A DNA stretch of 64,000 nucleotides from a virus (IMGVR_UViG_3300021399_000002:32001-96000); one strand, 5' to 3'. Counted from the stretch's first letter, positions 33,551-34,108 are shown. The notes: a model not told the origin generated them from the sequence alone. Numbers and translations are program-made.

Positions 33551-33584
33551 AGTCCCTTAGCGTAATGGTAGCGCAAGGAGTTGA
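33551..33584 (+). pseudogene. 5' half of interrupted tRNA-Gln(UUG)
   Basis: AGTCCCT-TA-GCGT-AATGGTA-GCGC-AAGGAG-TTGA; acceptor complement AGGGACT at 34101-34107. Confidence 0.85.
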
Positions 33585-33588
33585 TTTA

Positions 33589-33990
33589 ATGGAAACTAAA
33601 ATATGTACAAAATGTGGTATAGAAAAATCTATAGATGATTTTGCTTGGCGTGATAAAGCAAAAGGAACTAGGCGTTCTGAATGTAAAACTTGTCATAGTA
33701 ATTATATGAAAGAAAAATATAAAGAAAAACGACAAGCAATAGGAGAAATTAAATAGGATTTATCTTGTGCTAAATGTGGATATAATGAATATCCAACAGC
33801 TTTAGATTTTCATCATTTAGATCCAAGTCAAAAAGATACCACAGTCGCACGAATGATCGCAGCTAAATATAGTTTAGAGCGTGCCTTATCTGAAATTGAT
33901 AAATGTGTATGCTTATGTGCTAATTGCCATCGTGTATTTCATTTCCTTGAAAAAGAAGAAGGAATTACAATTGATGAGTTTCTAAAATAA
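33589..33990 (+). CDS. HNH homing endonuclease (133 aa), TAG-recoded
   Basis: CxxC motifs; LDFHH...EIDKCVCLCANCHRVFH; TAG at 33754-33756 read through. Confidence 0.85.
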
Positions 33991-34064
33991 TGGGGTGTCG
34001 CCAAGTTGGTCGAAGGCACAGGACTTTGACTCCTGCATCGTTGGTTCGAATCCAACCACCCCAG
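33991..34064 (+). tRNA. tRNA-Gln(UUG), carried inside the insertion
   Basis: TGGGGTG/CACCCCA; CAGGA-CT TTG AC-TCCTG. Confidence 0.9.
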
Positions 34065-34069
34065 CTTAA

Positions 34070-34108
34070 TTGACTCCACATGTGATGGTCCGATTCCATC
34101 AGGGACTG
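34070..34108 (+). pseudogene. 3' half of interrupted tRNA-Gln(UUG)
   Basis: TTGACTCC-ACATGT-GATGG-TCCGATT-CCATC-AGGGACT-G. Confidence 0.85.

Follow-up and report, generated by a model that had tools for sequence, protein, structure and literature searches.

We consider it probable that, within the tRNA array of a phage, a free-standing HNH endonuclease gene and an orthodox tRNA-Gln(UUG) gene sit together in the anticodon arm of the native tRNA-Gln gene, that this has killed the native gene, and that the pair travels by homing-type spread. Homing endonucleases are usually tolerated by hiding in self-splicing introns or inteins, or by lying between genes; a nuclease that settles inside an RNA gene and pays with a substitute would represent a third way of being nearly harmless. 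The same cassette would offer phages a route for swapping their tRNA genes, and the site itself, where a single orthologous position is found with empty, cleanly interrupted and destructively interrupted alleles, is an unusually complete natural experiment.

The split tRNA-Gln gene and its cassette

The window, by which we mean the whole stretch of DNA that was analysed (64,000 nucleotides, IMGVR_UViG_3300021399_000002:32001-96000), belongs to a phage genome of 182,655 bp that has terminal repeats, and its G+C is 35.6%. Its longest open reading frame grows from 523 to 1769 aa once TAG is read as sense, and ROOL, cow-rumen-3 and cow-rumen-4 RNAs are encoded in the window, which together point to a TAG-recoded rumen phage. 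There are 24 tRNA genes at 23157-34065 of the window, a tRNA(CUA) among them, and the cow-rumen-3 and cow-rumen-4 RNAs (25910-26053 and 22710-22775) lie in the tRNA array. The ROOL RNA (34551-35130, 265.9 bits) begins ~440 nt downstream of the split tRNA-Gln, has a consensus promoter of its own at 34485-34513, and also comes after the tRNA-Gln locus in four related loci (L121, L165, L116 and L162).

At 33551-34108 lies the native 71-nt tRNA-Gln(UUG) gene, interrupted by 493 bases. With introns allowed, ARAGORN draws a single cloverleaf from 33551-33584 and 34066-34109, with an insert of 484 nt and the 5' remnant paired with 34102-34108; this split tRNA-Gln is the sole genuine intron-type call in the 182,655-bp genome. 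The insert runs in the order AAGGAG, 8 bases and HNH open reading frame, the stop codon of which directly abuts a second tRNA-Gln(UUG). The features that matter to the argument are as follows.

23157-23242, + strand: tRNA(CUA), on which the decoding of TAG depends, both in the HNH gene and in the rest of the phage (ARAGORN).
32428-32456, + strand: consensus sigma-70-type promoter that probably drives the cassette unit (12/12 hexamer matches with TG; pattern match only).
33551-33576, + strand: 5' remnant of the native tRNA-Gln(UUG), with acceptor strand, D arm, A26 and A27 (identical to positions 1-26/27 of the 13 intact variants).
33575-33580, + strand: Shine-Dalgarno AAGGAG of the HNH gene, fused to the tRNA remnant, 8 nt before the ATG (read directly).
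33589-33990, + strand: HNH homing-endonuclease gene of 133 codons with an in-frame TAG at 33754-33756, codon 56 (assigned by phrog_2255).
33991-34065, + strand: carried orthodox tRNA-Gln(UUG), which occupies 33991-34064 and has discriminator G; a C at 34065 forms its tail (ARAGORN; Rfam 63.5 bits).
34066-34069, + strand: TTAA linker from the cassette to the resumed native sequence (comparison with empty alleles and L096).
34070-34108, + strand: 3' remnant with anticodon TTG, A37, C38, the 3' anticodon-stem strand and the rest of the gene through variable loop, T arm, acceptor strand and discriminator G (positions 34-73 of intact alleles).

The first-pass annotation had recognised here the two halves of a broken tRNA-Gln, held together by an AGTCCCT/AGGGACT acceptor. 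Indeed, ARAGORN rebuilds the cloverleaf and the halves match intact alleles; since 31 related loci hold the uninterrupted tRNA-Gln(UUG) gene, both halves are, by this comparison, true gene remnants and not chance resemblances. The placing of the insertion in the anticodon needs some correction: the insertion does fall within tRNA-Gln, but the 5' break is at about position 27, and native positions ~28-33, some 6 bases comprising the 5' anticodon-stem strand, C32 and U33, are lost. Similarly, the TTGA that had been seen at both junctions is present (33581-33584 and 34070-34073), but it is not a target-site duplication, since the upstream copy falls in the short stretch that separates the ribosome site from the ATG.

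Apart from the carried tRNA-Gln(UUG), the 182,655-bp genome has no tRNA-Gln. The carried one is of the orthodox bacterial type and also occurs in unrelated gut phages; among the GenBank phages of INPHARED, this carried type was the only part of the locus to be matched, and no relative of the locus itself was found. A 13-base core in the anticodon region, GGACTTTGACTCC, is common to the native and the carried tRNA-Gln, so that the earlier description of the latter as a cleavage-resistant copy is not obviously true: an enzyme reading the anticodon arm only would cut its own cargo too.

An identical architecture is present in at least four independent assemblies (the window, L001, which is the same as L089, L160, and L151/L088), and is therefore not an assembly artefact. 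The neighbourhood holds further tRNA-like sequences, which we record as observations in their own right. Between tRNA-Ser and the broken tRNA-Gln, at 33398-33549, lies a tRNA-framed element whose 5' end resembles the acceptor and D arm of a class II tRNA (GCGGTGGCGGAATAGGTAGACGCT) and whose 3' end is a T arm and acceptor strand; the middle, 55-200 nt long, is hypervariable among relatives and sometimes contains extra T-arm motifs, and none of the 12 variants is uninterrupted. Upstream of the cassette there are two more tRNA-like elements (32737-32807 and 32854-32925), one of which scores below the Rfam tRNA threshold (26 bits), and the other of which has a 6-base anticodon loop according to ARAGORN.

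The nuclease and its expression

Directly ahead of the intact tRNA-Gln(UUG), and as first described, there is an HNH gene: over residues 2-124 its product matches phrog_2255, 'HNH endonuclease', at E 1.6e-36. Five more HNH or endonuclease VII PHROGs match the protein, and the Pfam HNH models stay below the cut-off, HNH_2 at E 0.11. Alignment of 10 homologues (36-61% identity) leaves as invariant C6, C9, C32 and C35, then C60 and C63, then H75, H76 and D78, and finally C110, N112, C113, H114 and H118, and the window copy retains every one of these residues. The motifs thus follow one another as an N-terminal four-cysteine ribbon, CxxC, HH-D and C-x-N-C-H-x3-H, and the catalytic His...Asn...His motif is present, framed by two CxxC pairs of zinc ligands.

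Structural comparison gives weak matches to nucleases of this beta-beta-alpha-metal class. The AF2 model of the protein has a pLDDT of 93.2, and HNH nucleases fill nearly all of the top Foldseek rows, at weak scores (E of at least 0.15). Using VIA-align, weak matches were obtained for the catalytic half to 4h9d (Gme HNH; Z 4.5, rmsd 3.5, 69 aligned), Cap5 (Z 4.5) and McrA (Z 3.6); the zinc ribbon of Hpy99I aligns with the model at Z 6.4 (rmsd 1.9, 41 aligned). A sequence search of the PDB gave weak rows only, with McrA at E 0.022, and the 182,655-bp genome contains no second HNH copy. Judged by its sequence features, the protein is an HNH endonuclease, and metal-dependent cleavage of DNA is predicted. 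Of the three differences that separate the L089 cassette from that of the window, one is C113Y in a zinc-binding cysteine, which turns CANCH into CANYH. At least one cassette copy may therefore be inactive, and the substitution suggests that the L089 nuclease is already decaying.

The nuclease gene belongs to a family that keeps particular company. Among the best 40 homologue loci, 37 hold tRNA genes, and in 30 the nearest is no more than 400 nt away. Of the four closest homologues, three (L001, L003 and L004; 98, 60 and 48% identity) stand 4-21 nt upstream of a tRNA-Gln(UUG), one of these three being in a TGA-recoded phage; the fourth, L002 (61% identity), is not upstream of tRNA-Gln(UUG). 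Going by these neighbourhoods, the usual niche of the family is the tRNA array. As a separate observation, in L003, where an unrelated phage carries the window HNH's homologue in free-standing form, the tRNA that comes after tRNA-Gln (3497-3615) seems, by eye only, to hold an insert of ~45 nt in its anticodon region.

Translation of the nuclease requires that an in-frame stop be read through. The TAG reported upstream of the HNH motif is indeed there, at codon 56; it aligns with Q in two HNH homologues, and a TAG in the HNH gene of L168 aligns with a conserved K. The tRNA(CUA) (also at 277-368 of L001) is class II-like, with a long extra arm and discriminator G, and the nuclease would be made only when this phage tRNA reads codon 56. 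The dependence that the first-pass annotation had proposed is thus real, but it is general and not special to the HNH gene, since TAG is a sense codon genome-wide.

A further proposal, that AAGGAG in the anticodon stem of the broken tRNA acts as the Shine-Dalgarno of the nuclease gene, holds in so far as this motif serves the HNH ATG, but only A26-A27 derive from the tRNA. In two free-standing homologues outside any tRNA (L003 and L004), AAGGAG(G) stands just as far ahead of the ATG, and for this reason we regard the motif as mainly the nuclease gene's own; aligned in this way, AAGGAG is A26-A27 fused with the gene's Shine-Dalgarno. Between the promoter at 32428-32456 and position 34307, a pattern search found no terminator-like site on the + strand, so the cassette is probably transcribed with the array.

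In such a transcript a helix of ~10 bp is possible between 33577-33586, the ribosome site and spacer, and 34067-34077, the 3' junction and remnant. At -18.9 kcal/mol, this duplex is equalled by 0.03% (1 in 3000) of random window segments. If it forms as modelled, the helix may be a translational lock, or perhaps an intron-like closing stem, and pairing of the ribosome site with the 3' remnant may hold the nuclease back until the transcript is processed. Since the pairing is identical in all cassette copies, and thus without covariation, and is absent in L168, we treat the control of translation that it could exert as a lead only.

Empty, cleanly interrupted and decayed alleles

Viral and metagenome contigs were searched with the opening 18-24 bases of the 5' half as well as with the 3' end. 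Because the 5' exon was sought as an exact 18-base word, alleles with decayed 5' exons are under-sampled. An alignment with relatives had been proposed as a way of finding the empty allele, and this allele exists in related rumen phages, in 13 variants among the 31 uninterrupted loci, with the L084, L086 and L087 types as examples. The uninterrupted gene is 71 nt long, with the acceptor AGTCCCT/AGGGACT, the loop CTTTGAC and an unusual T loop, TCCGATT; the loop CTTTGAC is the same in all empty alleles, and the anticodon and T stems vary by paired changes only.

At this site the cassette is carried by the window, L089, L160, L151, L088 and L157. The 515 nt that extend from the 5' remnant through the carried tRNA are 99.3-100% identical in the window, L089 and L160, whereas the flanks up- and downstream of the same three cassettes are 42-68% identical and in part contain other genes, a difference that argues for recent movement. 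The 3' remnants of these three diverge from 9 nt past the junction, with their stems still paired, as would be seen if the cassette had lately entered three distinct resident alleles and no more than a very short margin had been co-converted with it. As the 5' exon is invariant in all alleles, the limit of co-conversion on that side is not visible. Moreover, a single rumen sample (3300028833) holds HNH-bearing (L001/L089), empty (L091 and L094) and derived (L096) alleles together, and alleles with and without the cassette have otherwise equivalent neighbourhoods. In its sequence and distribution, the element is as expected of a free-standing homing endonuclease gene, and the identity of the cassette within its divergent flanks bears out the early idea that the element is mobile. 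General recombination in a tRNA region as mosaic as this one could also have spread the cassette without the HNH nuclease.

The window's is not the only kind of nuclease cassette at the site. In L168, the 5' exon is intact to CTT, and is followed by a 100-base leader, an HNH gene of ~65% identity and a degenerate tRNA-Gln-like unit ending in G-CCA; the 3' exon has decayed, and its T stem and acceptor contain mismatches. At the same site in L119, a leader of the L168 type is combined with an unrelated HNH. In L096, a diverged copy of the carried tRNA is followed by C and the native 3' exon (TGAT TCCGT...), with neither HNH nor 5' exon. Across the nuclease-bearing alleles, as far as their sequences can tell, the outer gene decays and a substitute is carried.

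A different kind of interruption is found in other relatives, where the same anticodon holds ORF-less inserts: 22 variants of 43-86 nt, belonging to at least 8 families, with examples at 5400-5485 of L081 and 127-209 of L090, and also in L082, L116, L140, L145, L162, L165 and others. All 22 are placed cleanly, at positions 34/35 (CTT/TGAC) or 35/36 (CTTT/GAC); insert included, the L082-type gene measures 114 nt and the L081-type gene 157 nt. Every insert begins at base 1 of a 7-bp acceptor stem, which is fully paired in 21/22, and most have a 5-bp T arm adjoining the acceptor strand (5/5 pairs in 16/22); they end in a discriminator followed by C (12), T (3) or CCA (7). The acceptor stems covary between insert families, folding sets each insert on the anticodon stem as an additional tRNA-like domain, and the Rfam tRNA model reads three of the insert-bearing genes as intron-bearing tRNAs. 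ARAGORN calls the L090 insert a tRNA(CUA), but we rejected it as a suppressor, as its position 33 is A and its stems are weakly paired.

Removal of the inserts in silico leaves 13 distinct exon sequences, all with the loop CTTTGAC; 11 of the 13 have no mismatch in a stem, just as in the 13 empty variants, and four exon sequences are common to the insert-bearing and empty classes. No further copies of the inserts were found in their own genomes, in the window genome or in the loci compared, outside the tRNA-Gln site; being single-copy, they are neither dispersed repeats nor copies of neighbouring tRNA genes. G003, a complete genome of 189,572 bp with an insert, has 25 other tRNAs and no other tRNA-Gln. 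Clean inserts thus come with intact exons and no spare tRNA, whereas nuclease cassettes come with damaged exons and a spare tRNA, a contrast that removal of the inserts at the RNA level would predict. The allelic series provides its own natural controls, with 13 variants of the empty gene, 22 of the clean inserts (8 families) and 3 nuclease cassettes.

Could the phage remove such inserts itself? At 37766-46612, the window encodes an RNA repair set, comprising a methyltransferase, an AAA_33 P-loop kinase, Metallophos_2, DUF2828/DUF7788, an RlaP nucleotidyltransferase and an OB-fold RNA ligase; no TAG lies within these genes, and the RNA ligase is conserved in relatives. Within the set, the kinase spans 38557-39024, the phosphoesterase 39214-39852 and the ligase 45359-46612. 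By annotation, it is plausible that enzymes for the removal of inserts and the resealing of exons are encoded by the phage. RtcB (PF01139) is absent from the genome, as is reverse transcriptase (PF00078), and an origin of the inserts by copying of RNA is therefore without support in the window phage.

It is possible, although we hold the idea with more doubt than belief, that the tRNA-Gln site records the life cycle of an uncharacterised class of tRNA introns in bacterial viruses. Small tRNA-shaped units nested inside the anticodon would be excised by tRNA end-processing enzymes, with RNase P cutting at base 1 of the insert and a second cut falling after its C or CCA tail; RNase Z is not known to cut in this way. 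The phage RNA ligase and repair set would then reseal the halves. Nuclease-bearing cassettes would be derivatives that can no longer be removed, and which persist because their tRNA-shaped part is a working tRNA-Gln.

Spread, rival explanations and known systems

How might the cassette of the window move? In a coinfected cell, the nuclease would cut the uninterrupted tRNA-Gln of a relative in or near the anticodon-loop DNA, a target site that we infer from the position of the insertion only. Recombinational repair would copy nuclease and tRNA into the break, in intron-less homing by analogy with SegB of phage T4. RNase P and RNase Z would free the carried tRNA from the array transcript, and their action on this inner tRNA would cut the message directly after the HNH stop codon. 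As the carried tRNA would replace the lost native function, invasion would cost the phage little. The cassette may itself descend from a tRNA-shaped insert that gained a nuclease gene and lost its removability, given that its 3' end (tRNA, discriminator, C) resembles the inserts of the site. Only this 3' part fits the rule for insert ends, with inner tRNA, G and C and then 4-5 extra bases; the 5' junction of the window departs from it.

This resemblance opens the way to another order of events, which we judge unlikely. Perhaps a tRNA-Gln insert first nested cleanly at 34/35, the HNH gene later settled just upstream of the inner tRNA as a late passenger, and the outer 5' exon then decayed, in which case the spread of the element would owe as much to whatever moves tRNA-shaped inserts. 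L096, with its carried-tRNA copy, C and native 3' exon in the absence of an HNH gene, could be read in this way, and the inner tRNA of the window ends in discriminator plus C, following the rule of all 22 inserts. In L168, too, the inner unit ends in discriminator and CCA directly on the 3' exon, and the 5' junction at CTT is clean. However, we found no allele with an intact 5' exon and a nested carried tRNA that lacks HNH, and the window has, as TTAA(T), 4-5 bases too many at its 3' junction. Moreover, this sequence of events is compatible with homing by the HNH nuclease, as it concerns the order in which the parts arrived and not their present function.

Whatever that order, homing of the cassette into a tRNA-Gln gene that it kills fits the evidence far better than removal of the whole insert from RNA as an intron, with the outer tRNA-Gln still working, an explanation to which we attach very little weight. 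It is true that the insert occupies the anticodon arm, as bacterial group I introns do, that its junctions can pair in the rare duplex described above, and that genes for RNA ligase, kinase and phosphoesterase are present in the phage. However, Rfam recovers neither a group I intron (RF00028) nor any other ribozyme in 32400-34600 at E <= 1, and no intron or ribozyme in ten related loci, L168 and L119 included, at E <= 0.1; by eye, no bulge-helix-bulge is seen at the junctions of the window and L082. Besides the open reading frame and the inner tRNA, only ~20 noncoding bases are left in the insert. Joining the remnants leaves positions 28-33 unrestored and gives a 4-base loop or a mispaired stem, and no intact tRNA. 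The mismatches in the 3' exon of the sister cassette, L168, are those expected of a dead gene, and the element brings a replacement tRNA with it. With no ribozyme and the 5' anticodon-stem strand missing, we take the cassette not to be an intron, in agreement with the initial remark that no intron structure was evident. Finally, metagenome assemblies can join repeats such as tRNA genes, and contig L088 ends inside the cassette, but an assembly chimera, or an old rearrangement inherited vertically, is scarcely credible in view of identical junctions in at least four independent assemblies, a cassette so much better conserved than its flanks, and alleles with and without it in otherwise equivalent surroundings.

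Comparison with known systems places the homing cassette among several relatives of partial likeness. In the literature, we found no description of a nuclease inside an RNA gene that compensates with a tRNA of the same anticodon. The closest analogue is SegB of phage T4, a free-standing GIY-YIG homing endonuclease in a tRNA gene cluster; it recognises a motif of tRNA genes, and relatives lacking SegB acquire the adjoining tRNA genes along with it (PMC2330249). As with SegB, the nuclease gene of the window stands among phage tRNA genes and has no intron. On the other hand, SegB is GIY-YIG and not HNH, lies between tRNA genes and targets a T-arm motif, whereas the window element destroys a tRNA gene and supplies a substitute with the same anticodon. 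The activity of SegB has been demonstrated, whereas that of the window protein is predicted.

In phage Aeh1, mobE splits the nrdA gene, and the halves of the split protein still function together. MobE is a free-standing HNH endonuclease of T-even phages capable of trans-homing (PMC2790892). The window element is likewise an HNH homing gene without an intron that is able to land inside a gene; unlike the Aeh1 case, the RNA gene that it splits is left dead, with the carried cargo in its place. The anticodon loops of bacterial and phage tRNA genes can hold group I introns with homing endonucleases (reviewed in PMC3984707), which share with the site described here a place in the anticodon arm, the existence of forms with and without a nuclease, and their occurrence in some relatives but not in others. 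They differ in that the window element has no ribozyme, its exon is damaged, and function is kept by a spare gene.

With regard to the small tRNA-shaped inserts, our search of the literature yielded a single published mention: the tRNA introns of Lak megaphages were described as 'enigmatic', with the possibility that one of them is itself a tRNA gene (Devoto et al. 2019, PMC6784885). The Lak introns and the inserts in the window's relatives are of the same kind, being tRNA-shaped, nested in phage tRNA genes of stop-codon-recoded gut phages and polymorphic between genomes, with their removal unexplained. The window element, by contrast, carries a protein gene, and its insertion is not clean. 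The Lak report (PMC6784885) is without a nuclease, an allelic series or a rule for the ends of inserts; the allelic series at one orthologous site, and the rule that its insert ends follow, are what is new here.
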